IMG/VR virus record: IMGVR_UViG_3300025326_000088
Span: 1-42,109 of that record
DNA: 42,109 bases
Source of the DNA: a virus
Taxonomy: Duplodnaviria; Caudoviricetes
Direction: 5' to 3' (one strand)
Part shown: piece by piece, positions 1,809 through 30,201 of the stretch
How positions within the stretch are numbered: position 1 is the stretch's first letter
Layout: every line of letters starts with the position of its first letter
Translations under genes and position numbers: made by a program
Notes under the pieces: generated by a model
The model's database searches: none
What the model was told of the DNA's origin: nothing
The model's input: only the letters and a program-made list of their open reading frames with translations

Positions 1809-2274
1809 TTAAATAAGATTTTCTTAAATTAATTAATCCATTTTTTACATCAAGATTTAACATAACTCGTAAATCATTTTGTAATTCTTCCCATTTAACT
1901 CTTCCTTCTGTTGTGCTTTTCCAATATAAAAAGTCATGTAATTCAATAAACAATATTTTATTAATTTCTCTTTCTTTCCATAAATGAATAGCAATATAAG
2001 AATAACCACCGTTTTTATCTACTTCTATAAGATTTTCTATTTGATGTTTTTTAACATCTTCAAAGCTAAAACTTGTTCCATTTTTTAATAGTTTCGCTTC
2101 TATTGCGAGTAAATTACTTTTCCAGTAATATAGAATATCAAATGGTCTTTTAATCATAAACCTGCTTTTTTCTCCGCCACTCATACCTACATCGGTTGGT
2201 TTATGATACCAGCCATCGGGATATTCTATTTGTAAACTATTTTTAATAATTTGATGAGTTTGTATTTCTTTCAA
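1798..2274 (-). CDS. recU: RecU-like Holliday junction resolvase (PD-(D/E)xK)
   Basis: PFD...AIEAK...F..VKKHQIENL...GGYSYI pattern typical of RecU. Confidence 0.8.
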   Translation of the reverse strand: MKEIQTHQIIKNSLQIEYPDGWYHKPTDVGMSGGEKSRFMIKRPFDILYYWKSNLLAIEAKLLKNGTSFSFEDVKKHQIENLIEVDKNGGYSYIAIHLWKEREINKILFIELHDFLYWKSTTEGRVKWEELQNDLRVMLNLDVKNGLINLRKSYLIGG

Positions 2275-3602: not shown

Positions 3603-3657
3603 TCTTTATTTCCTTAATTTCCCATGAAATTATTCCATTTTTCATAAAGAGTTTCCA

Positions 3658-4602
3658 TTATTTTAACAGACTCATTTGTTTATTTTTCTCAAAATTTGTT
3701 ATAACAAGTTCAATTGCTTTTCTATTATTACCTAACATAGAAGAATATGTAAATGATATTTCATGTTGTTCAAAATCCTTATACAATTCTCTGATTAACG
3801 GAACATTATCATAAGTAATTAAAAACATATTACCCATTCTATCCACCTGTTTCATGTAAGTAGCTAAAAATCTATGATCTTTTTCTTCAAAAATATGTTC
3901 ATAATATATTCCAGAATCAGACACAACATAAGGTGGATCAAGAAAAAATAAAACTTTTTTGTTAGGTTTATTATATTTTTGTAATATTGCAAGCCAGTCT
4001 TTATTTTCAATTAACACGCCTTGCAATTTTTCTCTTGAACGGATTAATTGTTGGAATACTGTTACGCTTATATCGGAATAATTGTAGGCAAAAGCTGCGA
4101 GTTGCATATCATTGTTAAAATAATTTATGTTTAAATGAAAATAAATTGCTGCCCTAAGTTCTTCGGGTAAATCGTTCCATTTTTGCAAACCTTTATCTTT
4201 TAACATTCTTTGATGTTGTTTAAACATTACAGTAGAATTAAGTGTATGAAATAAATGAAACAAAAAATCTTCAAACATTGGACCAGATACGACTCGAAAT
4301 AAATTAACAAGATTATCGTTAATATCATTTATAATATTATACTTGACTTTTTTCTTTGCAAAAAATACAGATGCACTCCCCATGAACAATTCAACATAAG
4401 TTTCATGTGGTGGCATAATAGATATTAATTCTTTAGCTATGCGTTTTTTACCACCGATCCAACCGATAAAACCATCAGTATTTATTCTTGGGACACGATT
4501 AACTTTTACAAAAATGTTTTTTATAACAACATCTTTATAAGATGCGCTTGCTTGTTGAAGATTAAAACCAGTTTGATTTTTATTTTGTTTTTTCTTTGTC
4601 AT
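3658..4602 (-). CDS. DNA adenine methyltransferase (Dam/D12 class, N6-adenine)
   Basis: WIGGK, YVELFMGSASVF (SAM binding), INDIN, FFLDPPY catalytic motif. Confidence 0.92.
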   Translation of the reverse strand: MTKKKQNKNQTGFNLQQASASYKDVVIKNIFVKVNRVPRINTDGFIGWIGGKKRIAKELISIMPPHETYVELFMGSASVFFAKKKVKYNIINDINDNLVNLFRVVSGPMFEDFLFHLFHTLNSTVMFKQHQRMLKDKGLQKWNDLPEELRAAIYFHLNINYFNNDMQLAAFAYNYSDISVTVFQQLIRSREKLQGVLIENKDWLAILQKYNKPNKKVLFFLDPPYVVSDSGIYYEHIFEEKDHRFLATYMKQVDRMGNMFLITYDNVPLIRELYKDFEQHEISFTYSSMLGNNRKAIELVITNFEKNKQMSLLK

Positions 4603-4828
4603 CGTTCATCTCTTTAGTTAAAAATTCTTTTGTTTTAATTAATAATTCTTCAAAAGAAGTTGCATTTATTTTTTGCTCCCCTTTAGTGTTTCTATTTTCA
4701 AAATAGATTGTTGCTGATATGGAAGTTTTGCTTATCCAAAACACTATACGTTCAACACAATTATGCTGAAATGGATTGTTTAAAGTGGAAATATAACTTT
4801 CTTTATTCTTTAATTTTAAATCAAACAT
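4580..4828 (-). CDS. Hypothetical protein
   Basis: ORF in a tightly coupled operon. Confidence 0.6.
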   Translation of the reverse strand: MFDLKLKNKESYISTLNNPFQHNCVERIVFWISKTSISATIYFENRNTKGEQKINATSFEELLIKTKEFLTKEMNDDKEKTK

Positions 4829-5214
4829 TATAACACCAAATTTATATTTACATCATATTGTCCGTCATCATCCGTAAATTGATTAAAAAATCTGTAAGCA
4901 TCGTAATTCGTATCATTTGTTTTAAACAAAGTTGGTGCTTCTTCTTTGTCAATTAATTTCATTATCCATTTACCAAGAACTTTTCTTTCTTCATCTGGAA
5001 TGCCACCAATACAAGTATAAATCCAAAATGTAATTAAATCTCCAAATGTACTTTGACTAACATTAATTTTAATTACAGATTTTAATTCTTTTTCTGTTTC
5101 AAGAATTTTGTTATACCATAATTTATACCTACGAAGCCATTTTTCTACATCATGTTCTACATATTTAAAACTTTCTGAAAGCATTTTTGCTTTACTGTTC
5201 TTTCGCTTTGCCAC
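4828..5214 (-). CDS. Hypothetical protein
   Basis: 128-aa ORF overlapping its neighbours. Confidence 0.65.
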   Translation of the reverse strand: MAKRKNSKAKMLSESFKYVEHDVEKWLRRYKLWYNKILETEKELKSVIKINVSQSTFGDLITFWIYTCIGGIPDEERKVLGKWIMKLIDKEEAPTLFKTNDTNYDAYRFFNQFTDDDGQYDVNINLVL

Positions 5215-5554
5215 TTTCAGTTGCCTCGATTTTAATTTTATATCCTTCTTCTTTTAAAATTTGTATAGCTTCTGCAATTTTAGTTGGTTTTTTTATTTTA
5301 GAAAGTTCTTTGTTTTTCTCTTCCAAATATTCAATTTTTGTTTCAGCAGCTTTAAGTAATTTGGAATATTTAATAATTTTATCATTCATTTGTGTTATTA
5401 AATCATTCCAAAATGTAACTTGATTTAAATTTATTCCGCTGTAAAGTTTTGCATGCAATTCAACTTTTATTTCTGGCGAAACAATTAACTTTGTTATATC
5501 TTTTACAACTTTCTTTTCTTTTTTTTCTTCTGTCAATTGTACATTCCTTCCCAT
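5192..5554 (-). CDS. Hypothetical coiled-coil protein
   Basis: 120-aa ORF with a charged helical C-half. Confidence 0.65.
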   Translation of the reverse strand: MGRNVQLTEEKKEKKVVKDITKLIVSPEIKVELHAKLYSGINLNQVTFWNDLITQMNDKIIKYSKLLKAAETKIEYLEEKNKELSKIKKPTKIAEAIQILKEEGYKIKIEATESGKAKEQ

Positions 5555-6057
5555 TCAAATATGTTTAAATTATCAGATTCTACTCCAACAATCATTTGAT
5601 ATTCTTTTTCACCATCCCAATATTGTAAAATAGTTCCTTTTTCAAAACCAATAAGAGCAAATTTAACATAGTTGACTGAAGTCATTTTTATTGCTGGTTC
5701 ATATGGCATAATTATTGTATAAAAATCTGTTGTTGGCAACATATTGTCATATCCTTTCGATAAAAGATAATGTTGATTTGGTTTAGTATTATAAAATATT
5801 TCTAAAAATATGTTTTTAGTTTCATTTTCTTTTAATTTATTTTGCCATAAATTATCTAATTCGTCCCAAAAATCAAAACCTTCTTTTGTTCTCGACCAAG
5901 TAAATGCGCTTCGTATCCAGTGTTTAGGTTTTTCGGAGAACATTTCAAATTCTTCTTTTTCTTTTTTAAGGTCTGCGAGGAACTGTTTGTCAGAGTTATA
6001 TTCTTTAAGAAATTCTATAAAGTTCCAAGCAAAGAAAATTTTTTCTGATTCCTTCAT
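5533..6057 (-). CDS. Hypothetical phage protein (AF.W..T.EG..FW motif)
   Basis: Start moved to ATG 6057 (AAGGA RBS); WIRSAFTWSRTKEGFDFW is a recurrent phage motif. Confidence 0.7.
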   Translation of the reverse strand: MKESEKIFFAWNFIEFLKEYNSDKQFLADLKKEKEEFEMFSEKPKHWIRSAFTWSRTKEGFDFWDELDNLWQNKLKENETKNIFLEIFYNTKPNQHYLLSKGYDNMLPTTDFYTIIMPYEPAIKMTSVNYVKFALIGFEKGTILQYWDGEKEYQMIVGVESDNLNIFEWEGMYN

Positions 6058-6084
6058 TTCATTTTTTCCTTTCAAATAAATTAG

Positions 6085-6240
6085 ATAACCGGTTGGCAGG
6101 ATTCGAACCTGCAAGACTGTCGTCCATATTCAGCCACGGTTTTTATCACACCGAAAAAGATATTTTTAGACGATTTAATAATTTTTGCGTCTACCATGCC
6201 TTTGCCGGCTACATATAGGCGTTTCGCCACAACCAGTTAT
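6085..6240 (-). ncRNA. tRNA-like structured RNA (Leu-type D and T arms, no canonical anticodon arm)
   Basis: Terminal stem ATAACTGGTTG/CAACCGGTTAT, perfect T-arm GCAGG-TTCGAAT-CCTGC, D-arm TGGCGAAA...GGTAGACGC with a 26-nt insertion; fills the intergenic gap. Confidence 0.75.
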
Positions 6241-6249
6241 CAAGCATTA

Positions 6250-7017
6250 CTACCAATCAACTTTTTGTTCTGCTTTTTTGCCTTCTGCCACTTCCTCGTC
6301 AGTTACTATATTTTCCGTCTTTGTTTGATATTCTCCACGAATCTTTTTCTCTGCGACAGTTAATGTTCCAAGAATAGGCCATCCAGACTCAATCCTTTGT
6401 TTAAAATCATTGGGATCGACTGGAGTTGTGCATACTATAAATTCTTTAATTTGTGTAATAATTTTATCTTTCTCGTCTCTCGTTTCAATCAATTCTTTTG
6501 GATCATAACGTCCATATTGATTTTTAACAGCTCCTTCTATTGCTTTCATCACTGGTACTTCTTTATGTATTACTGTTAATTTTGCCGGCAATCCTAACAC
6601 ACCAGGAAATTCTTTATCATCATGCGGAGTAAATACCCTTTGATTGTTTTCCATAACATGATATCCAACTGTTCCATTTTTTCTATAATTTTTAGCACCA
6701 AGAGATATCATAAATTCATTGTACATTGGACGAGTATCTGTATTCCCAATTCTTTGTACTGGAAACATTCGATTCCAGGGATCACCTTGACCATTGTTAA
6801 CTCGTGATAGGAACAATCCCGTTTTATCATGTTTCCATTTCATATTAAGAAACACTTTAAAATCTGTGCTCCTTCTTGCTCCTGGCGGATTCATTTTAAG
6901 ATTACCAAACCACATATTCCAGAGTGTAAATAATTGCTCACCTTCTGGAATTACTTCTTCTTCCGTCTGGCCTATTTGATCTTCTTGATAAGCCAACGGA
7001 TCATATTTTTCTGACAT
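6250..7017 (-). CDS. Hypothetical protein, possible single-stranded DNA-binding protein
   Basis: Beta-rich 255 aa, acidic tail ending in Trp, near a Sak-like annealase (function inferred). Confidence 0.45.
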   Translation of the reverse strand: MSEKYDPLAYQEDQIGQTEEEVIPEGEQLFTLWNMWFGNLKMNPPGARRSTDFKVFLNMKWKHDKTGLFLSRVNNGQGDPWNRMFPVQRIGNTDTRPMYNEFMISLGAKNYRKNGTVGYHVMENNQRVFTPHDDKEFPGVLGLPAKLTVIHKEVPVMKAIEGAVKNQYGRYDPKELIETRDEKDKIITQIKEFIVCTTPVDPNDFKQRIESGWPILGTLTVAEKKIRGEYQTKTENIVTDEEVAEGKKAEQKVDW

Positions 7018-10671: not shown

Positions 10672-11163
10672 CTATTCTTCTTCCCCGTAAGTTTCTTTTA
10701 CAAACTTTTTGACAGGATTCAATCCGTTAAAATAGCTTGTAAAAACAGGAAGATCATCTTTGTATCCAAGGTCACGGATAACCTTGTCAACATTTTCCAG
10801 AACAGCTTTGCCTTCTGCTGCCGTCCAATCTTCAAATGCTTTATGAGCCTTGTTGCATATCTCATTAAGACGATTTAATTCTGGAATTTTGCTAACAGCA
10901 GATACAGTTCTTTTTACTCCGCCGCCAGGCAAGAATTTTCCATATTCTGATTTACCAGAATGTAGTCCTTTTAGCATTTGTTCGATCGGAACACCTTTGA
11001 TGGATTCGGCATTCTTAATATCTTTTTGGTATGATTCCCATGTTTTGGTATCAGTACCAAAATCTTTCTGTACTAACTTTTCCTTACCTGATTGTAAGAA
11101 TTTTCTTCGCAGTTGGATAGGATCCATTTCTGCAACATCTTTCTGTTTTACTTCATTAGACAT
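10672..11163 (-). CDS. Early protein, paralog A
   Basis: Shares KGLHSGKSEY.KF.PGG with 13679..14179; first gene after a promoter. Confidence 0.8.
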   Translation of the reverse strand: MSNEVKQKDVAEMDPIQLRRKFLQSGKEKLVQKDFGTDTKTWESYQKDIKNAESIKGVPIEQMLKGLHSGKSEYGKFLPGGGVKRTVSAVSKIPELNRLNEICNKAHKAFEDWTAAEGKAVLENVDKVIRDLGYKDDLPVFTSYFNGLNPVKKFVKETYGEEE

Positions 11164-13526: not shown

Positions 13527-13679
13527 TCACTTTTTAGGCTGATACCAAAGAAGAAAAGTTTCAGCTTCTTCTTTAGTATCAAATAGAGCAATCTTTTCGT
13601 AAATCGGGCGTTCAATCTTTACTTTTTCAATCGTGAAAATGCCATCCTTCTCAAAAATCACAAATTTATAAGCTTCCAT
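13527..13679 (-). CDS. Small early protein (50 aa)
   Basis: Read by hand: MEAYKFVIFEKDG...FDTKEEAETFLLWYQPKK; coupled to the upstream stop. Confidence 0.65.
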   Translation of the reverse strand: MEAYKFVIFEKDGIFTIEKVKIERPIYEKIALFDTKEEAETFLLWYQPKK

Positions 13680-14179
13680 TATTCTACCTTGCCTTTCCGT
13701 TTGATTCCCTGTACAAAATCCGTCACCCGGCGAATATTGCGATGATAAAGATCGAATCCGGTAGGATTTTCTTTATCCTTATATCCCAATTCTTTGATTT
13801 CCGCTTCAATCTTTTTGATTAAAGAATCCTGAGCAACTAAAAACTTATTAAATTCTGTTTTTAGCTTATTCTTTAACTCAAAAAGCGGAACCAATTTTTT
13901 CATCTTCGGTTTCGCTTCATAAACTGCGCCACCCGGGATGAATTTGGAGTACTCAGATTTTCCAGAATGAAGTCCCTTCAAAATAGTCGAAAGTGGAACG
14001 CCTTTTATAGCTTTGCCCCTTTCAATATCCTTCTGATATTCCCGGAAACTTTCAAGAGCGGTTCCAAAATCCGCTTGGGTTAATTGAGACTCGCCGGAGA
14101 TTAAACCCTTTCGCTTAAGCTGCTCTGGGGTTAATTTCTTTTTCGGTGAATCGCTACTATTGATCTTGGGCTGATTCAT
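13679..14179 (-). CDS. Early protein, paralog B
   Basis: Homologous to 10672..11163; first gene after promoter P2. Confidence 0.8.
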   Translation of the reverse strand: MNQPKINSSDSPKKKLTPEQLKRKGLISGESQLTQADFGTALESFREYQKDIERGKAIKGVPLSTILKGLHSGKSEYSKFIPGGAVYEAKPKMKKLVPLFELKNKLKTEFNKFLVAQDSLIKKIEAEIKELGYKDKENPTGFDLYHRNIRRVTDFVQGIKRKGKVE

Positions 14180-14297
14180 AATATGCCCCTTTCCTATTTA
14201 AGTGATTAGTTTACCCACTTAGGCTTAGTCCTAAGGCTGGGCCAATAGATTTTTATTTCAAAGATCGTTCCCGCATTTGAGGCGGTAATCTGAAATC

Positions 14298-14326
14298 AAT
14301 ATAATAAATAGAATATAAAAAGTCAA
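14298..14326 (-). promoter_or_regulatory. Sigma70-type promoter P2
   Basis: TTGACT-N17-TATATT. Confidence 0.75.
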
Positions 14327-14379
14327 GGATTATTTTAATTAATTTTAGGAATCTACTATTTTAATATACTGAGTAAAAA

Positions 14380-14575
14380 GTATAGAAAAGTATACAGGTG
14401 TATGAAAAAGTAGACACTGTATAGAAAAGTATACTTTCTAATGAGTGGTCAAAAAGTGTAAACTAAGTTTACGTATACTAAGTATGCAGGTGTATACTAA
14501 ATCATACATGTTATACTAAAGTATACAGGTGAATATAAGTTCACTATAATATTAATAGTGAATAAGAGTATACTA
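14380..14575. repeat. Array of about 8 imperfect palindromic 15-16-bp units (GTATAC-type hexamers ~10 bp apart)
   Basis: GTATAGAAAAGTATAC (x2), GTATGAAAAAGTAGAC, GTAAACTAAGTTTAC, GTATACTAAGTATGC, GTATACTAAATCATAC, TTATACTAAAGTATAC, GTGAATATAAGTTCAC; AAGTATRCAGGTG recurs three times. Confidence 0.8.
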
Positions 14576-14607
14576 TATATAGAGCACTGATATAATTTTA
14601 ATTATTT

Positions 14608-14647
<40 letters not shown>

Positions 14648-14991
14648 CTCTTATATAATATATAATAATATACTACTGACTGAAATTGAAAGAGCATTAT
14701 GCCCTTGAAATAAAAATAGCGGTATAGGAAATTTATAGACTCCCCCGGTCGGCGATATTAGATTGTTTTCATATAAGTTCACACATCATTTTTTTTAACC
14801 TTGTTTTTTAAAGAAAATTTATTAGGTGTTTAGAAGTTCAATATTTGTTCAATATGTTTTTTTATATTAATAATTCTCGTTTTCAACAACTTCTGAAATT
14901 TAATGTTTCTTCTTTTTTTCTGTAAACATTGAAATCTTGATTTTTTTGTTTCTGGTAACATTTGTTTCTTCATTTCAATTTCATTTTCTCC

Positions 14992-15013
14992 AAAAAAAAA
15001 AAAAAAAAAAAAA
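14992..15013. repeat. Poly(A) tract (22 nt)
   Basis: Direct reading. Confidence 0.85.
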
Positions 15014-15319
15014 TTATAAAAATTTTAGGCGTGATTTTAATTGTAGAGATTCTTGTTTGGAAAGTTTTTTACGTGTGGGTTTTGAATAAAATCTTTGTTT
15101 ATATAATTGTCGACTAGATGTTAAATTTAACACTCTCGTTTCATATATTTCCAATATAAAAGAATTTTGTCGTTGTGTTAATTTTCTACCAGTTTTATTA
15201 TAACTCCATGTTCGTTGTATAAAATCTATTTCCCATTTTGACAATTTAAATTTATTTTTTTTATTTTCTATTGCAAGAACAGATAAATAATGTCCAATCT
15301 TAAAGCCAACAATTTTCAA
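15014..15319 (-). CDS. Hypothetical phage protein (LS.WE..F...LT.RQ motif)
   Basis: Recurrent phage helical motif; start uncertain. Confidence 0.55.
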   Translation of the reverse strand: MKIVGFKIGHYLSVLAIENKKNKFKLSKWEIDFIQRTWSYNKTGRKLTQRQNSFILEIYETRVLNLTSSRQLYKQRFYSKPTRKKLSKQESLQLKSRLKFL

Positions 15320-16420: not shown

Positions 16421-16449
16421 CGCAAGGTCAGCATATCCTTTTGTTAGCG
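16421..16449 (+). mobile_element. attC right half-site (attC-1)
   Basis: GGTCAGCA-N9-GTTAGCG; GTTAGCGG is 7/8 complementary to the R'' CCCCTAAC of the next attC; no left arm found. Confidence 0.55.
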
Positions 16450-16722
16450 GGCTATTCGTTTTTTAAATTCAGCATAAGATAATTCATAAGTGGTATCTGG
16501 GAAAATTATCATCACATCGATTCGTGAGTTAGCGGTTTTTGAAGATTCTCTCCATTCATGCCAGTTAAAAGCGGTCATATCAATGCAAATTCCAATGGCA
16601 ATAGTAGTTTCTTTTAGATAGTTTGGTTCAAGGTTATGCGCTTGAGCAAAAACCCCTAACCATATAATGCAGCCGAACAAAAGGACTGCGGTGGGAATTA
16701 AATATTTAAAATGTTTCTTCAT
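16444..16722 (-). CDS. Cassette-borne secreted or membrane protein
   Basis: Signal-peptide-like N-terminus; starts inside the attC-2 loop and stops at the TTA of the attC-1 R' box. Confidence 0.7.
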   Translation of the reverse strand: MKKHFKYLIPTAVLLFGCIIWLGVFAQAHNLEPNYLKETTIAIGICIDMTAFNWHEWRESSKTANSRIDVMIIFPDTTYELSYAEFKKRIAR

Positions 16723-16777
16723 GTTTTATCTCTTTATAAATGTTTCAAATTTTGTCGGCTGATTATCACCGTTATGT
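16654..16777 (+). mobile_element. Integron attC site (attC-2, 124 bp)
   Basis: CCCTAAC-CATA-TAAT[G]CAGCCGA[A]CAAAA ... TTTTG-TCGGCTG-ATTA-TCACC-GTTATGT: R and L boxes with two extrahelical bases. Confidence 0.85.
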
Positions 16778-16968
16778 CAAGAAGAAATCCAGTTCTCAAT
16801 TTTTTCCGCCTTCTCAGGATGTTCTTTTCTAAATTCATCCCTCAATGCGACGCATCCCTGGCAAGTCACGATGATAGACAAATCGTGATCAGTGCCGTTA
16901 ATCACTCTTTCAATGAGCAATTTCTTTTTGCATTTGGGACATTCCGCAAATGTTATATCGTATCTCAT
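16777..16968 (-). CDS. Cassette-borne small Zn-ribbon protein
   Basis: MRYDITFAECPKC...TCQGC; AAGGA RBS before ATG 16968; lies between attC-2 and attC-3. Confidence 0.7.
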   Translation of the reverse strand: MRYDITFAECPKCKKKLLIERVINGTDHDLSIIVTCQGCVALRDEFRKEHPEKAEKIENWISS

Positions 16969-16998
16969 AGTAAATTTCCTTGTTTTAGCAGTCCGACG

Positions 16999-17127
16999 CC
17001 CTAACAAAGCGTTTGCACCTGAACGGTGCACATACCCCTACGTTCATAGCTGCGACATATGTGAGCCACGTTCCGCCCATCGGATTAATCCGCTACGCCG
17101 TCAGGTGAAACGCCAAATCTGTTAGGA
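16999..17127 (+). mobile_element. Integron attC site (attC-3, 129 bp)
   Basis: CCCTAAC-AAA-GCGTTT[G]CACCTGA[A]CGG ... CCG-TCAGGTG-AAACGC-CAAATCT-GTTAGGA; internal palindrome CGGATTAATCCG. Confidence 0.88.
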
Positions 17128-17306
17128 GTCAAAGCGCGCTGTCCATCGCCCCGCATGGCATCGGGGACATTTAGCAAGTTTACCCTTACTCTTGTGTGTC
17201 CCTTAAATAACATTTGTAAAGATGCTCTGAATAATATCCATGCTGTTTGGTAACGCTGTTTCTTGTTTCCCAATCCTTTCTCCCAATCAATAATTTTCCA
17301 TGCCAT
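17085..17306 (-). CDS. Hypothetical protein (C-terminus reads into attC-3; probably chimeric)
   Basis: AGGAG RBS; final residues are encoded by the attC arm. Confidence 0.5.
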   Translation of the reverse strand: MAWKIIDWEKGLGNKKQRYQTAWILFRASLQMLFKGHTRVRVNLLNVPDAMRGDGQRALTPNRFGVSPDGVAD

Positions 17307-17313
17307 TTTAATT

Positions 17314-17823
17314 TTATCTCCTTTTTCTTTTTACAATTCTAAAAGCCCTAAATTGTATCTGTTTATGTTTATTCCCAATTAATCTAAAATCGATCTTATG
17401 CGCCAGCCCGCAATCACAACATTTCACGTAATAGTTTTTTCTTCTCGGCGTTATCCATTCCCCGTCATATTGTTGTTTGTATCTCATAGTCGGTGTTCTC
17501 GTCCATCGCCCCGCACGGCAGAGAAGACATAGATGATCATAATGTCCGAATCCATGCGCCGAACAAATAGAAGCCCACCAAAACCCGAACCAGGTACGAT
17601 TGCGAAAAAATCCAACTATGCCTTTAACCGGACCCGCTTTGTCTTCTGTGCGCTTATATATTAATAGCTGTATAACTATAGCCGATAGACCCCCCGATGT
17701 AATAATCCCACAAATGATTTTCCACCTAAAAATATTCCAGCAAAATTCATAATCCAAATATTCTTCGGGAGATGGATACAGTTCCACAAGCTCTGATCCA
17801 CAATATTCACATTTGTTACTCAT
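17314..17823 (-). CDS. Cys-rich hypothetical protein, apparent fusion of two small phage genes
   Basis: CEYC...CSAH...CLLCRAGRW joined in frame to MRYKQQYDGEWITP...CCDCGLAH; start moved to MSNK. Confidence 0.6.
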   Translation of the reverse strand: MSNKCEYCGSELVELYPSPEEYLDYEFCWNIFRWKIICGIITSGGLSAIVIQLLIYKRTEDKAGPVKGIVGFFRNRTWFGFWWASICSAHGFGHYDHLCLLCRAGRWTRTPTMRYKQQYDGEWITPRRKNYYVKCCDCGLAHKIDFRLIGNKHKQIQFRAFRIVKRKRR

Positions 17824-17827
17824 CCGT

Positions 17828-18052
17828 TTACACTCCAACAAACCAAATCCCGTCCGGTTCAAACTTTCCGTTGTCATCACAAAAATATTTACGGGTTTCT
17901 TCATAGCATCCGGCAGTCAATACTTCACCATGTGTCACAGATCGGAAATAATTATTTACGGTTATTTCAATAACTGTTCCCGCTTTCATCCACGGCAAAT
18001 CCTTCATTAAAACAAATTTGTTGGGCGTATGAACACTATAAATTTTATTCAT
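17828..18052 (-). CDS. Hypothetical protein
   Basis: AGGAG RBS; LMKDLPWMKAGT motif. Confidence 0.65.
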   Translation of the reverse strand: MNKIYSVHTPNKFVLMKDLPWMKAGTVIEITVNNYFRSVTHGEVLTAGCYEETRKYFCDDNGKFEPDGIWFVGV

Positions 18053-18279
18053 TTTTTCTCCTGAAATAAAAGTAAATTTTGCAAAACATATACTATGTAT
18101 TCCCTATTGTATATTTGCCACGCCCGCTCCCAATTGGTCCATTCTTGTTGTTTGATTTCGCCTGTCCAACTCATGAAATCCTTTCTGTATTCTTCTGGTA
18201 TTTTTGCAAACGGAGGTGCGTATTCTCCGTCTAACAATTTTATCAAATCTTTTATCAAGTTCGCTGGCTGCTTCTTCAT
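18049..18279 (-). CDS. Hypothetical protein
   Basis: AAGGAG RBS just inside the attC-4 arm. Confidence 0.65.
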   Translation of the reverse strand: MKKQPANLIKDLIKLLDGEYAPPFAKIPEEYRKDFMSWTGEIKQQEWTNWERAWQIYNREYIVYVLQNLLLFQEKK

Positions 18280-18322
18280 TTTTTAGTTCTCCTTGCTTTT
18301 TTAGTTCATTGCTCGAAACCCA

Positions 18323-18348
18323 CCTTCCGGTGAGCATCAACGTTATAC
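18323..18348 (+). mobile_element. attC right half-site (attC-4)
   Basis: CCGGTGAGCA-TCAAC-GTTATAC; its TTA is the stop codon of 18343..18648. Confidence 0.55.
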
Positions 18349-18648
18349 CGCCTTTAATTGTTGTATCCAATCCCAAACCAGACTATTATAATTTTTGTTA
18401 TGGTGATTTTTCTTTATTTTGTCTTCCATGTCATTGATAAAGTTGTCAAGAGATATTAATCGTTGCTTCATTTGTTCATATTCATTAAGGGGCAGGCTAA
18501 CCACTGGCTGCTCCCGAACGGAAGGGGCTGAGATTTCTTTTATTGCATTTATAATTTGGGCTATTTGACATCGCACGGAATATGTAGAGCCAAGTTCAAC
18601 TTCTATTCCATGTTTTTTTAGTAATTCAATTATTTTTTTATCAGTCAT
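18343..18648 (-). CDS. Cassette-borne hypothetical protein
   Basis: RBS and ATG lie in the attC-5 right arm; stop lies in the attC-4 R' box. Confidence 0.7.
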   Translation of the reverse strand: MTDKKIIELLKKHGIEVELGSTYSVRCQIAQIINAIKEISAPSVREQPVVSLPLNEYEQMKQRLISLDNFINDMEDKIKKNHHNKNYNSLVWDWIQQLKAV

Positions 18649-18669
18649 AGAGAGCCTCGTTTGTTAGAT
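18495..18669 (+). mobile_element. Long, degenerate attC site (attC-5, 175 bp)
   Basis: GGCTAAC-CACT-GGCT[G]CTC ... GAGAGCC-TCGTTT-GTTAGAT; extra G at the canonical position; loop is coding. Confidence 0.6.
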
Positions 18670-20129: not shown

Positions 20130-21062
20130 ATGAGTATTTATAATGAAAAAGAACGTGAAGTCGGGTTGTTTAAAAGTAATTTTAGTGAAGAAGGAATTAG
20201 ATTTCGTTGTTTAAGAAAAAAAGAAAATGAACGTTGGCAATGGTTGGGGTTGTCTAAATTTTATAATGGAGTTCATTATGCTGAAATTTACACACTCGAA
20301 CAAGCAATTCAAAAAAATATTGATCCTCGCAAAGATTGGCGCATTCCACTTAAATCAGAAAAACATTATTTTGTTCCAAATGTTTATGCCCAAAAAAACG
20401 ATTGGGTTATAACGGAAGTACCTGGTCCATTGGAAGAATTTTGGATTATGCAAGTGCTTTGGAGGTGTGATTCATTAAAAGGAGATTTGTCGCATATTAG
20501 AACTGCTACTGGAACATATTTTGTAGATAAATTTGGAAGAAAAACTAAATTATTTGATGGGACAGATTTAAAAGGACAATATCATATTTCAACATCAGAA
20601 GCATATCAAGTTAAAAGTAACATTAATCAAAAAAGAATTAAATTATTAGTTACATTTATAGTCGCTCTTATTAAACAATATGGAGCATTTAATAAAGAAA
20701 TTGTAATGATGGCTTATAGGTCTGCCTATGGGAATGATGCAAGTTGGCAGAAAGTCGTCTTAATTATGAAAAGCGAGCCAATCATGAGTGAAGTAGCAAA
20801 ACAATTAGCGGATTTGTTAAAAGAGAGGGGGGCATCGCCAGAATTTGTTGTAGATAATTTTGTTGATATGGCCAAAAGTGAATATGATAAAGACCCAAAG
20901 CGTAGGGAAAGGATTAATCGTTTGCTTGGGTTAATGAATAATTTGCCAACGCTTGAGGATGCAAAACAACTTGGGGAAGGAAATGGGAAAGCGATTCCAG
21001 CAAAGTTTAGGGATGTTGAAGAAGTAGAAGTAACAAATGATTTGGAAAAAATTGAAGAATAA
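20130..21062 (+). CDS. Putative terminase small subunit with N-terminal extension
   Basis: Directly upstream of and coupled to TerL; the C-half AYRSAY...IMSEV...L...G...EFVV is TerS-like. Confidence 0.55.
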   Translation: MSIYNEKEREVGLFKSNFSEEGIRFRCLRKKENERWQWLGLSKFYNGVHYAEIYTLEQAIQKNIDPRKDWRIPLKSEKHYFVPNVYAQKNDWVITEVPGPLEEFWIMQVLWRCDSLKGDLSHIRTATGTYFVDKFGRKTKLFDGTDLKGQYHISTSEAYQVKSNINQKRIKLLVTFIVALIKQYGAFNKEIVMMAYRSAYGNDASWQKVVLIMKSEPIMSEVAKQLADLLKERGASPEFVVDNFVDMAKSEYDKDPKRRERINRLLGLMNNLPTLEDAKQLGEGNGKAIPAKFRDVEEVEVTNDLEKIEE

Positions 21063-22831
21063 TGGATTCTGATAAAAAACAACAATTTAGGGATATTATT
21101 AACACTGAACCTATTTGGGGCAAAGCTGGAAATGCCATGGTTAAAGTGTTATTTCCTTATGCTTTTCGTAGGGCTGGCGGAGAATTATCTATATTTGCCA
21201 GATATATTCTTTGGGCGTTAATTAATCATTTAAAAATAATTGTTCAACTTCCCCGGTTCCATGCCAAATCTACTGTAATAACTTTCCTTTATGTAATGTA
21301 TTGTATTCTTATTAAGAAGAAAAAGTACATTCTTATTTTATCTTCAACTGGTGGACAGGCCGTTAAATTTTTAATGCGTATTCGTGTTTATTTACAAAGT
21401 AGAAAAATGCGAACATATTATGGTGATATCGGCCGAGCCGTTGATATTAAAGATGTAAATGAGTCATTTGAATATGTTGAAGAAGATGGTAAAAAGAGAT
21501 CACGTGTTTGGAATTTTAAAGAAATTTACATAGAACCTTGGGGTATTAGAATTATGGCATCTTCTATTAAATCCGCTAATAGAGGATTGCTTAGTGTTGA
21601 TGATCGACCAGATTTAATTATATTTGATGATGTTGAAGACAGAAAGAATACCAATACGTTGGAGTTGCGGCAAAAATTAATTGAAGATATTTTTGAAGAA
21701 ATTATTCCTGCCGGAGATATTGATTGTCAATTTATCGCAGTTGGAACTATTTGTCATTTTGGTTCTTATTTGTTAAAATTAAAACAATCTGATTCTTGGT
21801 TTAAAATTCCGATGGAAAGATCAACAGATACGATTGAAAATATTTTAAAGTTAAACGATTTGCTTCCAAGTGAATTTCCAAAAGAATATAGATTTAATCC
21901 AAGATCAGAATATTTTACACAGGATCAAATTGGTATTGATGGACATAAATATTTTAAAGGACAGGAAACCCCGGAAGTAGCTTTATGGCAAGGTATTTAT
22001 GATTATGAATATTTTTGCGATAAAAGAGAAGAAGCTGCTGCCGTTGGGGTATTGCCTTCTTTTTGGCAAGAACGATATAATATTCCTAAAACAAATGAAT
22101 CCAGAGTATTTACAGAATTTCGGTATGTTCAAGGATTAGAAATTAAATATTTGTTTAATGAACTTATTCTTGAAGCAAACGTTGAAAGTCCATTTGTATT
22201 TCCAAATGGAAGAAAAGTTTGTAATGTTCTTTCATTTATTGGTGGCGACCTTGCTGTAAGCGAAGCAACGAGTGCTGATTGGAGAGCATTTTTTATTGGA
22301 TTTACTGATCCTTGGGGAAATGTGTATGTATTGCCTCCTTATAGAACAAAAGAACCTGATCCTTTTATTATTGGAAAATGGATATTAACAAAACATAATA
22401 AATATAATTTTGAATCAGGAACGTTTGATGGTCAGCATTTTCAGAAATGGTTTGGGAGAATTTTAAAACATTTAGTTGTGCATGAAAAGAATAAAGATGG
22501 AGAGAAAGAATATAGCAAATTAAAAGTGTATCAAGAACCAAGAAGCGAGCAAAAAGAACAGGTAATTTCTGGTACATTGGCTCCATATATTACTGGAGAG
22601 AAATTATATTTTGTTGGAAATCCATCTGAATTTAAAGAAACTGTTGATGAATTAATGTATTTAGGATATTGGGACACTGATGATCTTGCTGACGCTTTAA
22701 CGTATTTTTGTTCACATTTAAAATTTCCCGCTTTTATTGATTTTGATTTTATTAGGCCAATGGGACAAATTTCAGCAAGATCGGCATGGTACGATGATAT
22801 ACCAATAGAAAGAAGAGCATGGCTTTCGTAA
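21062..22831 (+). CDS. terL: Terminase large subunit
   Basis: PRFHAKST Walker A, LIIFDDVE Walker B, VGT coupling motif, GGDLA and DDLADAL nuclease motifs. Confidence 0.93.
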   Translation: MDSDKKQQFRDIINTEPIWGKAGNAMVKVLFPYAFRRAGGELSIFARYILWALINHLKIIVQLPRFHAKSTVITFLYVMYCILIKKKKYILILSSTGGQAVKFLMRIRVYLQSRKMRTYYGDIGRAVDIKDVNESFEYVEEDGKKRSRVWNFKEIYIEPWGIRIMASSIKSANRGLLSVDDRPDLIIFDDVEDRKNTNTLELRQKLIEDIFEEIIPAGDIDCQFIAVGTICHFGSYLLKLKQSDSWFKIPMERSTDTIENILKLNDLLPSEFPKEYRFNPRSEYFTQDQIGIDGHKYFKGQETPEVALWQGIYDYEYFCDKREEAAAVGVLPSFWQERYNIPKTNESRVFTEFRYVQGLEIKYLFNELILEANVESPFVFPNGRKVCNVLSFIGGDLAVSEATSADWRAFFIGFTDPWGNVYVLPPYRTKEPDPFIIGKWILTKHNKYNFESGTFDGQHFQKWFGRILKHLVVHEKNKDGEKEYSKLKVYQEPRSEQKEQVISGTLAPYITGEKLYFVGNPSEFKETVDELMYLGYWDTDDLADALTYFCSHLKFPAFIDFDFIRPMGQISARSAWYDDIPIERRAWLS

Positions 22832-24053: not shown

Positions 24054-24406
24054 TTGAGATCATTATTGTCTATTTGATTATCCTGGAATTGAAGACCATA
24101 AGGGATATAATCTTGTTCCGATTCTCGATTTCAATTCTGACCAAATTGCCGGAGTGGTTGCGGCAATTTTTAAAAGGCAGTTATAACAATTACGATGTCA
24201 CTATGCGAGCGAATGTTTTTGATGGTTTTCATTTAACCGATGGAACAATCATTACTGGCAGTTTTGCATTGACGATGTATTTTAAATATGGACTGATAAT
24301 AATGCTGTGGACTATTCCGCTTTTTTGGATAATCTTTTACCCGGTGTTGTTCAATTTCAATTATCATTTCATACACACATTGAAAGCATTTAGAGATTAT
24401 GAATAA
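24050..24406 (+). CDS. Multi-TM membrane protein
   Basis: Hydrophobic segments; D.FH motif. Confidence 0.6.
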   Translation: MIEIIIVYLIILELKTIRDIILFRFSISILTKLPEWLRQFLKGSYNNYDVTMRANVFDGFHLTDGTIITGSFALTMYFKYGLIIMLWTIPLFWIIFYPVLFNFNYHFIHTLKAFRDYE

Positions 24407-24767
24407 AGTTTATGGATATTCTCTTTCATTAGATTTGCATGATTGTGATATTAAGAAATTTAATAGAAAATCAATTAAAATGTTTTTTAAAGTGCTTTGT
24501 CAATTTACAAATATGACGCCCGAAAAGTTATCATGGTGGGATTACGAAGGAGAAGATATGATTCATGTGCCTATTCATTTATCAGGAATATCGGCAGTGC
24601 AATTTATAACCACAAGTTCTATCGTTATACACAGTTTAGATAAATTAGGAAAAGTTTTTATTGATTTTTTTTCTTGTAAGGAATTTGATCCCAATCAGAT
24701 AAGAGAATTTTGTGCTAATTTTTTCGCAGGAGTAGAAAAACGATGGAGTTATTTTGAGAGAATTTAA
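24399..24767 (+). CDS. S-adenosylmethionine decarboxylase-like pyruvoyl enzyme
   Basis: YG..L.LDLHDC, GISAVQFITTSSIVIH, IDFFSCKEFD motifs. Confidence 0.85.
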   Translation: MNKVYGYSLSLDLHDCDIKKFNRKSIKMFFKVLCQFTNMTPEKLSWWDYEGEDMIHVPIHLSGISAVQFITTSSIVIHSLDKLGKVFIDFFSCKEFDPNQIREFCANFFAGVEKRWSYFERI

Positions 24768-25761
24768 TGTTGTTATGATTATTCCTACCGGCATCGGATG
24801 TACTATTGGTGGTCATGCAGGGGACGCTACACCTGCCGCGAGGCTTTTAGCATCTGTTTGTGACAATTTAATTGTACATCCGAATGTAGTTAATGCTTCT
24901 GATATTAATGAAATGACTGAAAATATGTGGTATGTTGAGGGAAGTATTCTTGATAGATTTTTGAAAGGAGAAATTGCGCTTTCAAAACTTGGTCAAAATA
25001 AAATTTTATTAGTAGTAAATAAACCGATTCGTGGAGATACAATTAATGCGGTTGCAGCAGTTCAACATACCTTGGGAATTGACATAGAAATCAAAGAACT
25101 TGACATTTCGTTGCTTATGAACGGAAGTTTTAATAATGATGGAACTGCGGGCGGAAGTTATTCGGGGGTTGAGGAGTTAGTTGAGCAAATAAAACAATAT
25201 GATTATGATGCTTTAGCCATTCATACTGAAGTCGAATTAAGTCGTGATATTGCTCTTAATTATTTTAAAAATGGTGGAGTTAATCCATGGGGTGGAATTG
25301 AAGCAATCGTTTCCAAATTAATCGCTACGGCAATAAATAAACCAGTAGCTCATGCTCCAATGGAACGTGAAGAAACTATTTTTGATAAAGAGTTAATTTT
25401 TTATTATAAAAATATTTCTTCTCAACCACGTACTTGTGCAGAATTATTGTCTACAACATATTTGCCATGTGTTCTGAAAGGATTAAATACAGCGCCTCGT
25501 ATTGATCCATATGGACGACAATTAAATTATCCTATGGATGTTTTGATTTCTCCAAATAATTGTTATGGGATGCCTCATAAAATTTGTGAGGAGCGAAATA
25601 TTCCCATTATTGCAGTGCGTGAAAATAACTGTTGCTTGAATAAGCCAATCCCAACTAATCACATTTTTGTTGAGAATTATTTAGAAGCTGCTGGTATTTT
25701 GGCTTGTATGCGAAGTTCTATTAATCCTAAATCAGTTTTGTATAATGTTAAAAGCATTTAG
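24754..25761 (+). CDS. DUF3326 family protein
   Basis: IPTGIGC.IGGHAGDA.P.ARLLA.VCD.LI.HPNV.N and GVNPWGG.EA..S...P.AHAP signatures. Confidence 0.85.
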   Translation: MREFNVVMIIPTGIGCTIGGHAGDATPAARLLASVCDNLIVHPNVVNASDINEMTENMWYVEGSILDRFLKGEIALSKLGQNKILLVVNKPIRGDTINAVAAVQHTLGIDIEIKELDISLLMNGSFNNDGTAGGSYSGVEELVEQIKQYDYDALAIHTEVELSRDIALNYFKNGGVNPWGGIEAIVSKLIATAINKPVAHAPMEREETIFDKELIFYYKNISSQPRTCAELLSTTYLPCVLKGLNTAPRIDPYGRQLNYPMDVLISPNNCYGMPHKICEERNIPIIAVRENNCCLNKPIPTNHIFVENYLEAAGILACMRSSINPKSVLYNVKSI

Positions 25762-25766
25762 AGATT

Positions 25767-26108
25767 ATGAAAGCAAGAGAAGATAAAATATTGCTATTAA
25801 TTATCATCATTGTTATCTTGATGCTAATCAGAATGGATGCACAGGATTTATCGAACGAAGCAAACTTAACCGATGAGGTATATCATGTTGAACAAATGTA
25901 TAATATTCTTAATCTTGATTCTCTTCGCGCTGAGTTTCAAGAGCTCGATCGCCAGCGATTTCAAATTCGCAGCAGCGGCTGGACTGGCGAGCTACGACTT
26001 CCACAACGATTGGGAAGCCTTAAAGACGCCACTTATGGGCGGTGTGGAATGGACAAAAGTCAAGAACCTTCCATTAGGGATTTTCATAGCGCCGACCATC
26101 GGCAATAA
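25767..26108 (+). CDS. N-terminally membrane-anchored protein (i-spanin-like)
   Basis: TM at residues 8-21 followed by a helical segment; overlaps the next gene out of frame. Confidence 0.45.
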   Translation: MKAREDKILLLIIIIVILMLIRMDAQDLSNEANLTDEVYHVEQMYNILNLDSLRAEFQELDRQRFQIRSSGWTGELRLPQRLGSLKDATYGRCGMDKSQEPSIRDFHSADHRQ

Positions 26109-26265
26109 GAACGGCAAAAATATTTCAACGCTCGATGCTATTTTCCATACTGATTTATTGTCAAAGTTTGGCATCGGATTCTCCGCACAATTTTATGATG
26201 TAAGAAAATCAGGATTAGTATTCTTCAGAAATCGAAAGTTAGTTTTGACATGGAGATTGCGTTGA
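25873..26265 (+). CDS. Secreted beta-strand protein (outer-membrane barrel-like)
   Basis: Signal peptide ending SIA; amphipathic strands; C-terminal LVLTWRLR. Confidence 0.55.
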   Translation: MRYIMLNKCIIFLILILFALSFKSSIASDFKFAAAAGLASYDFHNDWEALKTPLMGGVEWTKVKNLPLGIFIAPTIGNKNGKNISTLDAIFHTDLLSKFGIGFSAQFYDVRKSGLVFFRNRKLVLTWRLR

Positions 26266-26768
26266 ACAACTTCAGGGGCGTAAAATCAAGATATGATTAT
26301 AGTCTAAATTTCTTACAAAATTATGTAAAAACCTATGAAACGATTCTTGATTTGGGAGCAAAAAATAATTTATCACATAAAATGAAAAGACGAGGATTTG
26401 AAGTTGTTAATACAAATTACGATCTGGATTTGGAACCCGAAAAACTTGAGAAGGAATTTTATAACGTGGTAACTGCTTTTGAAATATTGGAACATTTGAT
26501 TGAACCTGCACAAGTTTTGAAAAGATTGAGTGGAAAATTATTGGCGTCTGTTCCATTAAATGTTTGGTTCTCCTCTCCGCATTGGACGACGGAGCCTTAT
26601 GAACAACATTATCAGGAATTTCATCCGCAGCAGTTTGACAAATTGCTCCGTTATTGTGGGTGGGTAATCGTAAAGAAAAAAAAGGTGAGAATTGTTAAAC
26701 GATTCGGCATAAGACAAATATTAAGTTTAATTTTTCCACGTTATTATTTTGTATATGCGGTAAAATAA
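26250..26768 (+). CDS. Class I SAM-dependent methyltransferase
   Basis: ILDLGA, VVTAFEILEHL..P, ASVP, HYQEF. Confidence 0.85.
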   Translation: MEIALNNFRGVKSRYDYSLNFLQNYVKTYETILDLGAKNNLSHKMKRRGFEVVNTNYDLDLEPEKLEKEFYNVVTAFEILEHLIEPAQVLKRLSGKLLASVPLNVWFSSPHWTTEPYEQHYQEFHPQQFDKLLRYCGWVIVKKKKVRIVKRFGIRQILSLIFPRYYFVYAVK

Positions 26769-28044: not shown

Positions 28045-28214
28045 AAACAATAATAATAACTTATAGCGGAGAATTAGATAAGATTCTTGATGATTTAATT
28101 GTTAAGGTAATGAAGAATGCTGGATTTGAATGGTATGCTCAAGGTTATGATTTGGTAAAAAAAGAAAGAAATATTTGTTTTGATGTTAAAGAGGAAATTT
28201 TAGAGAATGCCTAA
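28041..28214 (+). CDS. Hypothetical protein (57 aa)
   Basis: Read by hand: MKTIIITYSGELD...ERNICFD; overlaps both neighbours. Confidence 0.6.
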   Translation: MKTIIITYSGELDKILDDLIVKVMKNAGFEWYAQGYDLVKKERNICFDVKEEILENA

Positions 28215-30201
28215 ACCAATTAAAAACGACAAAGAAGAAAAAAAACTTCTTAAACTTATTTGGGAAACTCATTTCTGGTCAAAACAGGCAAGAGATCAAG
28301 AGTTTATGCCACGTTTTCAGCATGCCATGAGAATGTATATGGATCAAACTATTGATTCAGATGAATTACAAATAATATATGAACGTGGACAAACTGATGT
28401 AAGCGTAAATTATCTTAGATTCTTTTTGCGTAAAATGCAGGCATATATGACTGCTAACCAACCTCAGTGGGTTGTATTTGGTAGTATATTTGATCGGGTT
28501 AAAAGTGCTTATTTAGCAAATGCTTATCTTAACCATAATTGGAGAATATCTAAGGGATATTTACAAGTTGTTGATATTCTTAAAAATATGACTGTTGGTG
28601 GTTTAGGTCTTGCTTCTAATTTTATTGATTATAAAGCAAGAGAAGGAAAAGGTGATGTTCGTTGGAGATCATTGCCTGTTCAGTATTATTATCCAGATTG
28701 GAGAAGTCAAGATCAATTACAAGATGATGCAAGTTTTCAACAAGTGGCTTTCACTGTTACATTGGAATCAGCTATTAGAATTGCTCCTGACAGGGAAAAA
28801 GAATTAAGAATGCTTGAAACTGTTCCAGATAATTATGATACTTTATTTCAGGAAGGAGCATTAACTTATGGAGAATTTCCTGATCCAGAAAAGTTGCATA
28901 GAGTAAGACGAGTTGCTCATTATCAAGTGGAGGAAGGTAAAATTTGGGAATTGCGGGATTTACTTGATAATAAGACATATAGAGTAAATGAAAATCCAGA
29001 TTTACCATTACCTTATACTGTTGATATTAGAGAACTTAGTGTTCCAAGGCTTGTTAAATATGATTGTTTTTATGGTATGGGTGAGGAAGATGGAATAATA
29101 TTTGATAAAACAATGTTTCCTTTTCCAGATTTTTTAATTAAACCATTTATAAATGAATTTACTGGAAATCCATTTCCTGCTGGAGAAGCATACTTTTTAG
29201 AAAAATTACAAAAGTATATTGATAAATCATTGAGGATTGCTTTACAACATGAACAATGGAACTCTAATCCAGGTGTATTTTTGCCAGAAGGTTCTGTTGA
29301 TGATATTGCCGCTTTTGAAAAAAAGGTTATGTGGCCGGGATTTGTTCAAACTTATAACGCAGAGGAAGGGAATCCATTTTTTAAACAAGGCGTTGCCGGA
29401 CAAACTGGTTTTTATAAGATTGTAGAGTTTATGATTGAATCAATGCGTCAAGGTGTTGGCAATATGTTTAATCCAGGCATGGCAAAGGGTAATGCAACTG
29501 AGGATCAATTACTTAAAGAATATGGACAAGAAGAAGGTGATATGTTGTTTAGAAATTTTGAAGTTGCATTGGAATCAAATGCTGTCGCAGCTTTAAAACT
29601 TGGAAAATATCATTATACTGAACCAATGCTTTTAAAATTTATTGATCGTCAAAAACATCCACAAGTTATTCCTGTTAATAAAACATTTGTAAATGAAGAA
29701 GGTGAATTGGATGGATATTATTTAAGAGATATTGACCATGATTTGGTAATAGCCACAAGGTCTTATGCTCCTTCTCATAAATTTGTTCAACAAGAAAGAA
29801 TTGTTAGGGCGATGCAATTTTCGCCGCCGCAAGTTCTTGATTTATTGTTTAAAGAATTAGTTAAAACTATGGAGCTTGATCCAGAAATATTAGATGAAGT
29901 TAACATGAGAATGGATTTAATACCGCAATTACAACAACAAATGCAACAAATGGTTGAAATGCTTGATGAAATGCAAAAGAAAAATAAACAACTTGAATCA
30001 CAAGTATTTACAGCTGACAGAAAGGCTGTTAGAGCTGGATACGATGCTGAATTAGTTGGGTTTGTAGATAAATTTAAAACAAACCTTAGAGCAATAGAAA
30101 AAATTTATCAAAATCAATTAAATTCAAATGTAAAAATTCAAAAGGCAATAGCCCAATCAAGGGAAGCCGGAAAGGTAGGACAAAATGGGACAAGCACGTA
30201 A
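28207..30201 (+). CDS. Portal protein (P22-like)
   Basis: 664 aa; position; RGQ..V.VN, L..LQ..ID and C-terminal Gln-rich coiled coil. Confidence 0.88.
   Translation: MPKPIKNDKEEKKLLKLIWETHFWSKQARDQEFMPRFQHAMRMYMDQTIDSDELQIIYERGQTDVSVNYLRFFLRKMQAYMTANQPQWVVFGSIFDRVKSAYLANAYLNHNWRISKGYLQVVDILKNMTVGGLGLASNFIDYKAREGKGDVRWRSLPVQYYYPDWRSQDQLQDDASFQQVAFTVTLESAIRIAPDREKELRMLETVPDNYDTLFQEGALTYGEFPDPEKLHRVRRVAHYQVEEGKIWELRDLLDNKTYRVNENPDLPLPYTVDIRELSVPRLVKYDCFYGMGEEDGIIFDKTMFPFPDFLIKPFINEFTGNPFPAGEAYFLEKLQKYIDKSLRIALQHEQWNSNPGVFLPEGSVDDIAAFEKKVMWPGFVQTYNAEEGNPFFKQGVAGQTGFYKIVEFMIESMRQGVGNMFNPGMAKGNATEDQLLKEYGQEEGDMLFRNFEVALESNAVAALKLGKYHYTEPMLLKFIDRQKHPQVIPVNKTFVNEEGELDGYYLRDIDHDLVIATRSYAPSHKFVQQERIVRAMQFSPPQVLDLLFKELVKTMELDPEILDEVNMRMDLIPQLQQQMQQMVEMLDEMQKKNKQLESQVFTADRKAVRAGYDAELVGFVDKFKTNLRAIEKIYQNQLNSNVKIQKAIAQSREAGKVGQNGTST

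Follow-up and report, generated by a model that had tools for sequence, protein, structure and literature searches.

An eroded, integrase-less attC cluster with genes of reversed polarity in a tailed-phage genome

Introduction

Clusters of attC sites lacking an integron integrase gene (CALINs) have already been published from phages. According to the text of Qi, Rajabal, Ghaly, Tetu and Gillings (2023; PMC9892861), 17 CALINs were recorded in 10,705 phages and five of six phage attC sites tested were recombined by IntI1. A preliminary description of the locus studied here, which called such clusters known mainly from cellular replicons, had missed this. The locus lies in a 42,109-nucleotide stretch of viral DNA (Duplodnaviria; Caudoviricetes; IMG/VR record IMGVR_UViG_3300025326_000088, positions 1 to 42,109), called the window throughout, in which five attC-like elements occupy positions between 16,421 and 18,669, each where it had first been placed. 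Judged from its sequence, this array is a real but eroded phage CALIN of a reverse-polarity kind. Within the literature searched, its new aspect is the presence of reversed genes that start inside an attC hairpin.

Like the phage CALINs in the text of PMC9892861, the array has at least two attC sites within 3 kb, no intI, and small genes between the sites. The covariance model used in this work (R1, described below) also finds the sites of phage TJE1, including attC2, for which recombination has been published and which served as a benchmark (23.6 bits). The genes of TJE1 lie on the attC top strand, whereas those of the array are reversed, starting in hairpin loops and stopping in R' boxes. 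When two published phage genomes were re-read with the same model, all five hits in MW202573 (positions 2069–3883; three at E < 0.001) and attC1 of P12002L (NC_028924, 30,005–30,059) pointed opposite to the annotated genes. The text of PMC9892861 reports divergent sites in one phage and makes no mention of reversed genes, although its figures or annotation may show orientation; no paper found in the open-access literature describes reverse-polarity phage cassettes.

With attC sites as presented in the texts of Cury 2016 (PMC4889954) and Nivina 2016 (PMC5027507), the array shares the R''/L''/L'/R' boxes and two unpaired L'' bases six pairs apart, and with the bacterial CALINs of PMC4889954 it shares the placement of sites on one strand, less than 4 kb apart. 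It departs from the usual attC in that the first unpaired base of the bottom strand is C, not G, a feature shared by four of 55 high-scoring bacterial sites. Further differences from bacterial attC arrays are the long spacers of site 3, R'' boxes mismatched to the cassette start, and the fact that neither intI nor attI was found (attI was not searched for with a model).

To our knowledge, how new cassettes arise is an open question, and the reversed layout bears on their origin. If the interpretation developed below is true, phages adapt a host swapping system to their own operons, beyond carrying host cassettes. The window would then be a worn example of this, showing a late stage with lost arms and exchange away from the G|TT crossover, along with one in-frame domain swap at the edge of an attC site; it gives no demonstration of integrase activity.

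Identity of the attC Sites

Sites were located with a purpose-written geometric attC scanner (threshold 7.5) tested on 40 loci around bacterial intI genes. Its strand call is taken as the standard attC top strand because 96 of the 97 hits in those loci point away from intI. Site 2 (16,654–16,777) and site 3 (16,999–17,127) scored 17.0 and 17.4, respectively, both with the top strand on plus; the next-best score in the window, 16.4, belonged to an AT-rich hit inside a late gene, and a score of 17 was reached by none of 40 whole-window shuffles and none of 600 shuffles of the region. The preliminary description had called for a covariance-model check, which was run here with a model of our own, R1, built from 33 outside sites (31 from those bacterial intI loci and two from integron-bearing prophages). 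Both sites were significant and matched on the plus strand only, site 2 at 31.5 bits (E = 1.7e-5) and site 3 at 20.1 bits (E = 0.011), these E-values being rough. Site 2 consists of AAC, a 5-nt spacer, three pairs, an unpaired G (16,669), six pairs, an unpaired A (16,676), a 6-nt spacer, and GTT, with the canonical crossover G|TT at 16,771/2. The L stem of site 3 is built in the same way (unpaired G 17,015 and A 17,022; G|TT 17,121/2), with longer spacers of 6 and 10 nt. Each of the two thus has an R'' AAC, an R' GTT, and a paired L stem, which whole sites 1, 4, and 5 do not, and the distance of six pairs between the two unpaired L'' bases recurs in the left arm of site 5. Sites 2 and 3 lie on the same strand and 221 nt apart, within the 4-kb limit used for CALINs. 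By scanner, model, and box structure, both are identified as attC-type, as the preliminary description had held.

The remaining elements were assessed with half-site weight matrices built on 71 bacterial sites, by which 1,646 candidate arms were ranked. Among left arms, those of sites 5, 2, and 3 took the first three ranks (16.2, 14.6, and 11.7 bits; best in shuffles, mean 8.3 and maximum 12.5 bits); among right arms, sites 2 and 4 came first and second (14.0 and 13.0 bits; best in shuffles, mean 8.9 and maximum 15.8 bits), with site 3 at rank 8. Site 4 (18,264–18,348, top strand plus) has a good right arm (18,323–18,348; G|TT 18,342/3) and, at 18,264–18,272, a 9-nt remnant identical to 18,504–18,512 in the left arm of site 5, which is likely the leftover of its own left arm. 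Site 5 (18,495–18,669, top strand plus) combines a strong left arm (R'' 18,495–18,501) with a weak right arm that doubles as a ribosome-binding region, is not significant, and falls outside the 14 best array candidates; its overall pairing is poor, and as a whole the site stays below the scanner threshold and has no covariance-model match. Site 1 (16,421–16,449, strand not assigned) is a single attC-like arm in which a GTT box occupies 16,443–16,445 and for which no partner arm was found; it was not significant at rank 31 as a right arm or 21 as a left arm. An arm resembling it occurs at positions 1,020–1,050 of L004, a phage contig treated below, and, in two runs, at the end of a contig, and site 1 is a recurring element despite its non-significant score. 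The array therefore comprises two complete sites, a pair of good half-sites, and a single arm of the recurring type, and it is eroded. The common orientation first proposed for all five elements holds for sites 2 and 3 and for the arms of sites 4 and 5, and is less certain for site 1; of the elements described earlier as half-sites or as degenerate, the right arm of site 4 and the left arm of site 5 score well, and site 1 and the right arm of site 5 do not. Between sites 3 and 4, about 1.2 kb holds several genes and no attC site.

The same measurements bear on whether the elements arose as hairpins by chance, or are RNA structures native to the phage, with no relation to integrons. Free-energy folding separates site 3 from shuffled sequences (z about −3.0), but site 2 is no more stable than shuffles (z −0.47/−0.15), and this result, like the lack of significance of site 1 and of the right arm of site 5, is what such structures would lead one to expect. 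Nevertheless, the covariance model, the geometry, and the arm matrices, which derive from integrase-linked arrays, pick out these sites and do so on one strand, which makes that explanation very improbable.

Reversed Polarity of the Array Genes

All array genes are encoded on the minus strand, against the direction of the attC top strand, with overlap between genes and sites, a layout that the preliminary description had overlooked. The minus-strand open reading frames (ORFs) are identified as the real genes on two grounds: the codon score per codon ranges from −0.18 to +0.17 in 17 minus-strand frames as against −0.31 to −0.88 in seven plus-strand ORFs, and ribosome-binding motifs precede most minus-strand array ORFs. 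In a canonical cassette the coding strand is the attC top strand and the gene ends upstream of R'' or within it; the genes of the array are arranged otherwise. Bacterial cassettes from 12 arrays (intervals of 100–1000 nt with intact boxes) were forward in 133 of 146 cases, with eight in reverse and five without a gene; a cruder rule gave 38 forward of 48.

Two genes display the overlap in full. The 92-residue ORF at 16,444–16,722 starts in the loop of site 2, crosses the L''/R'' arm, and ends with a TAA in the GTT box of site 1, and the 101-residue ORF at 18,343–18,648 starts in the loop of site 5, crosses the corresponding arm, and has its TAA stop within site 4's R' box. The TAAC stop context is found in these two of the seven array genes and in none of the 56 other ORFs of the window (p = 0.011).

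This layout has to be weighed against a one-off capture of a host chromosomal array by illegitimate recombination followed by decay, in which the integrase never acted on phage DNA, as the text of PMC9892861 proposes for other phages. The composition of the block would suit a foreign origin: it has 38.7% GC and its two flanks have 28.0% and 26.7%, in agreement with the GC-richness first noticed (maximum elsewhere in the window, 37.0%), and it fits phage codon use less well than the flanks do. However, host arrays are forward in the proportion given above while the genes here are all reversed and overlap the sites, the array sites differ among themselves in family, and the same layout is present in an unrelated phage contig and in the two published phages, so that a single capture appears quite unlikely.

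Two further viral contigs, L099 and L100, which came from a pattern search, carry a run of nine compact attC sites (L100 about 2998–6425, continuing to L099 4241), all with the unpaired G and A. No IntI match was obtained in L100.

Integrase and Host

Ten IntI queries run against six frames of the 42-kb window returned nothing at E ≤ 1, although the same queries recovered a truncated intI used as a control, and no tyrosine recombinase was present among the 65 window ORFs. The array thus has no intI nearby within the window, which together with the structural genes described below agrees with the original claim of a phage genome with no integrase in the window; nor is there a complete integron with intI and attI in cis, as intI is missing (attI being outside the model searches).

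A pattern for the family of site 1 had no viral match in one search and none in 401 genomes of one phylum. Another search gave four genome matches and one viral match, none of them followed by a hairpin, and these were taken as chance; contig L016 showed a weak match and no attC. Relatives of the terminase gave no inference as to the host.

Circular-Cassette Signature, Breakpoints, and Exchange with Another Phage

In a cassette that has passed through a circular form, R'' is complementary to the start of its own cassette, and the outer three R'' bases match in 140 of 146 bacterial cassettes. In the array the corresponding values are 2/3, 1/3, and 1/3. The 7/8 complementarity between the R' and R'' of the first cassette noted earlier was counted correctly, but as a sign of a once-circular cassette it fails against these controls.

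Pieces of the array are shared with other DNA in contigs of two of the four examined runs, which bears out the suggestion of a variable accessory region. None of the five breakpoints between the window and this co-occurring phage DNA falls exactly at G|TT, the distances being 2, 152, 78, 152, and 15 nt in a comparison with pieces of a different phage, no close relative carrying this region having been found. Two of the breakpoints are 1 and 0 nt from start codons, and the others include the edge of an R'' box and a position 2 nt off a crossover. Current gain and loss of genes at G|TT, as the preliminary description supposed, is accordingly not seen, and the exchange can be described as mosaic and away from G|TT.

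An active array, in which a host IntI still excises and inserts the cassettes 16,444–16,771 and 16,772–17,121 at G|TT, would be compatible with the canonical geometry of site 2, which outscores the experimentally active TJE1 site, with the one breakpoint 2 nt from the site 2 crossover, and with the 7/8 match of the first cassette. The position of the breakpoints and the poor circular-form match both count against it, as does an independent assembly, a 53-kb metagenome contig, which is identical to the window over the array. Contigs of four runs listed no circular junction or crossover joint, a weak argument, as contigs drop rare forms and cannot show absence. Integrase activity at the array at present is not supported by these comparisons, and we consider an active array unlikely.

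The partner is best seen in the viral record L004 (7.8 kb), whose DNA resembles the window nowhere beyond the shared pieces. One shared piece matches it directly, the L004 flank being the same as the contig end over 30 of 30 letters. The two-CxxC ORF at 16,777–16,968 is shared at 99% over the 138 nt present there. The leader from the R'' box of site 3 to the start codon (16,965–17,007, minus strand) is 87% identical to a leader at another place in L004 that follows an attC and precedes a different CxxC gene. L004 also carries a perfect attC of its own with the same reverse polarity and a TAA stop in its box, and a second attC-like remnant at 3,654–3,702 (19.2 bits), which has kept its R boxes, lost the inner arm, and lies opposite to the neighbouring genes. 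A rise in contig depth was not used as proof that the partner shares 16,909–17,723, as GC bias could mimic it. Separately, the L004 flank at 133–147 resembles site 2 (window 16,755–16,779) without the right arm, and a 9-mer recurs just past the arm; the comparison suggests that an arm may have been lost near a 4-nt repeat.

One co-occurring contig joins position 18,264 to 18,495, skipping 230 bp, with eight other letters between them. The R'' box of site 5 begins at position 18,495, and the joined frame of 378 nt is a multiple of three; the seven listed differences in its N-terminal part create no stop, and three are silent. On the simplest reading, site 4 would once have had a left arm like that of site 5, of which the R'' box later disappeared without a frameshift, and recombination between two left arms would have joined a loop-encoded N-terminus to another gene body.

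Alternatively, the in-frame joint could be assigned to the R'' box of site 5 or to the bases beside it, and would then agree with a flipped polarity of the system itself, in which the plus strand is recombined, the crossover lies in R'', the mobile unit is a gene body with the next hairpin, and in-frame chimeras arise by design. According to the text of PMC5027507, IntI needs the folded bottom strand and the choice of strand is largely set by the unpaired bases, but recombination of the top strand happens for some sites. In the array, the unpaired bases are positioned to favour the other strand, homology in the shared arm explains the joint equally well, and the frame of the R'' box differs between sites 2/3 and site 5, which together make a flipped crossover improbable.

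Proposed Origin of the Array

The explanation to which we incline, with guarded confidence, is an integrase-less attC cluster with reversed genes that was probably built in trans by a host IntI and now seems to be decaying, recent exchange having probably taken place by short-homology recombination. The text of 10.1101/2022.09.11.507474 (SALINs, attG) reports that GWT cores outside integrons receive cassettes through IntI and that the inserted folded attC is easily lost. Insertion of this kind fits the half-sites and the R' boxes made from stop codons found here, but it was shown for bacterial chromosomes in E. coli, and phage genomes or stop codons are not described in that text. Seen from the attC top strand, a TAA-C stop context is GTTA, which would fit the GWT secondary-site core of IntI. 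Insertion of a cassette at such a stop would not disrupt the phage gene upstream, whose stop would then lie within the R' box just formed, and only cassettes reversed onto the operon strand would be read from the leftward phage operon and hence kept. The attC loop would then provide a ribosome site and a start codon, while the L''/R'' arm would become coding. Over time, arms would be lost, as at sites 1, 4, and 5, fixing the genes in place, and phages occurring together could trade modules at start codons and at arm sequences they have in common, an exchange able to fuse, in frame, the N-terminus encoded by a loop with the body of another gene.

Several points weigh against this explanation. 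The IntI search covered the 42-kb window, beyond which the 53-kb contig extends for roughly 11 kb or more; pattern and genome searches found neither a host nor an intI or a matching attC family in one. Insertion at stops rests on two genes here and one in L004, and in MW202573 a TAAC stop occurs in one of nine annotated genes. The polarity of the L099/L100 array is mixed, with forward genes of bacterial type and short reversed phage-like genes. The partner phage is known from contig pieces and the 7.8-kb record, whose membership in one genome is inferred. As for the 230-bp joint, the predicted 125-residue fused protein is not among the protein-search matches, though within their length range, the continuity of the fused gene body depends on the contig graph, and the change may have gone either way.

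A broader possibility, which we put forward as a tentative and still rather doubtful extension, is that phages keep their own pool of reversed cassettes, with protein starts in the attC loops and arms that are coding, that exchange at attC arms builds chimeric proteins, that stop codons are the entry sites, and that phages may make new cassettes.

Other Array Genes and Genomic Context

The remaining genes of the array are small and lie on the minus strand. The ORF at 16,777–16,968 (63 residues, two CxxC motifs) has a ribosome-binding site and a stop that abuts the R' box of site 2, and its weak match to NF047912 is below the cut-off. A 73-residue ORF (17,085–17,306) reads across site 3's right arm, with its stop in the loop of that site. 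It is followed by small ORFs at 17,314–17,823 (or the part 17,314–17,487) and 17,828–18,052, with no attC between them; a variant of the latter one codon shorter exists. A 76-residue ORF (18,049–18,279) starts in the presumed loop of site 4. The 92-residue protein has a hydrophobic start that by eye resembles a signal peptide; it had no homolog except itself, and tblastn against phages gave none. The 101-residue protein likewise had no homolog except itself. Searches assigned the small array proteins to no Pfam or PHROGs family, the only results being one sub-threshold NCBIfam match and Atlas look-alikes below the bar. The two CxxC ORFs open with an identical 12 bases around the start codon (16,960–16,971 and 17,479–17,490). 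A GC-rich 30-nt direct repeat (83%) is present at 17,141–17,170, just outside the R' box of site 3, and at 17,501–17,530, just before a start codon.

Protein family searches assign the window to a tailed phage with a large terminase (21,062–22,831), a P22-like portal (28,207–30,201), and an SU10-type capsid (31,422–32,663), to the left of which are genes for a helicase, a methylase, and nucleases; the array sits in a leftward run of small ORFs. The stretch was present in 20 of 23 listed runs, all of soil or sediment DNA, 18 of them marked as possible sources, and no RNA run among those listed carried it. Terminase and exonuclease searches for close relatives returned only the same phage or distant contigs without the array region, the blastn matches between the array and 50,697 phage records were all short (E ≥ 0.07), and site 3 compared with plasmids gave only matches at E 5. 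Rfam searches over the window yielded a single weak, unrelated match outside the array, no tRNA was detected, and promoter-like sites in the region were at chance level (33 against 28.5 ± 5.5).

Elsewhere in the window, a non-coding stretch at 14,200–15,050 with imperfect repeats of 39–92 nt, a poly-T of about 34, and a poly-A of about 20 is a possible origin or terminus region. The ORFs at 10,672–11,163 and 13,679–14,179 (163 and 166 residues) are similar, share a conserved central motif by eye, and are apparent paralogs. The interval between terminase and portal (24,399–26,768) contains genes for an S-adenosylmethionine (AdoMet) decarboxylase, a DUF3326 protein, and a methyltransferase.

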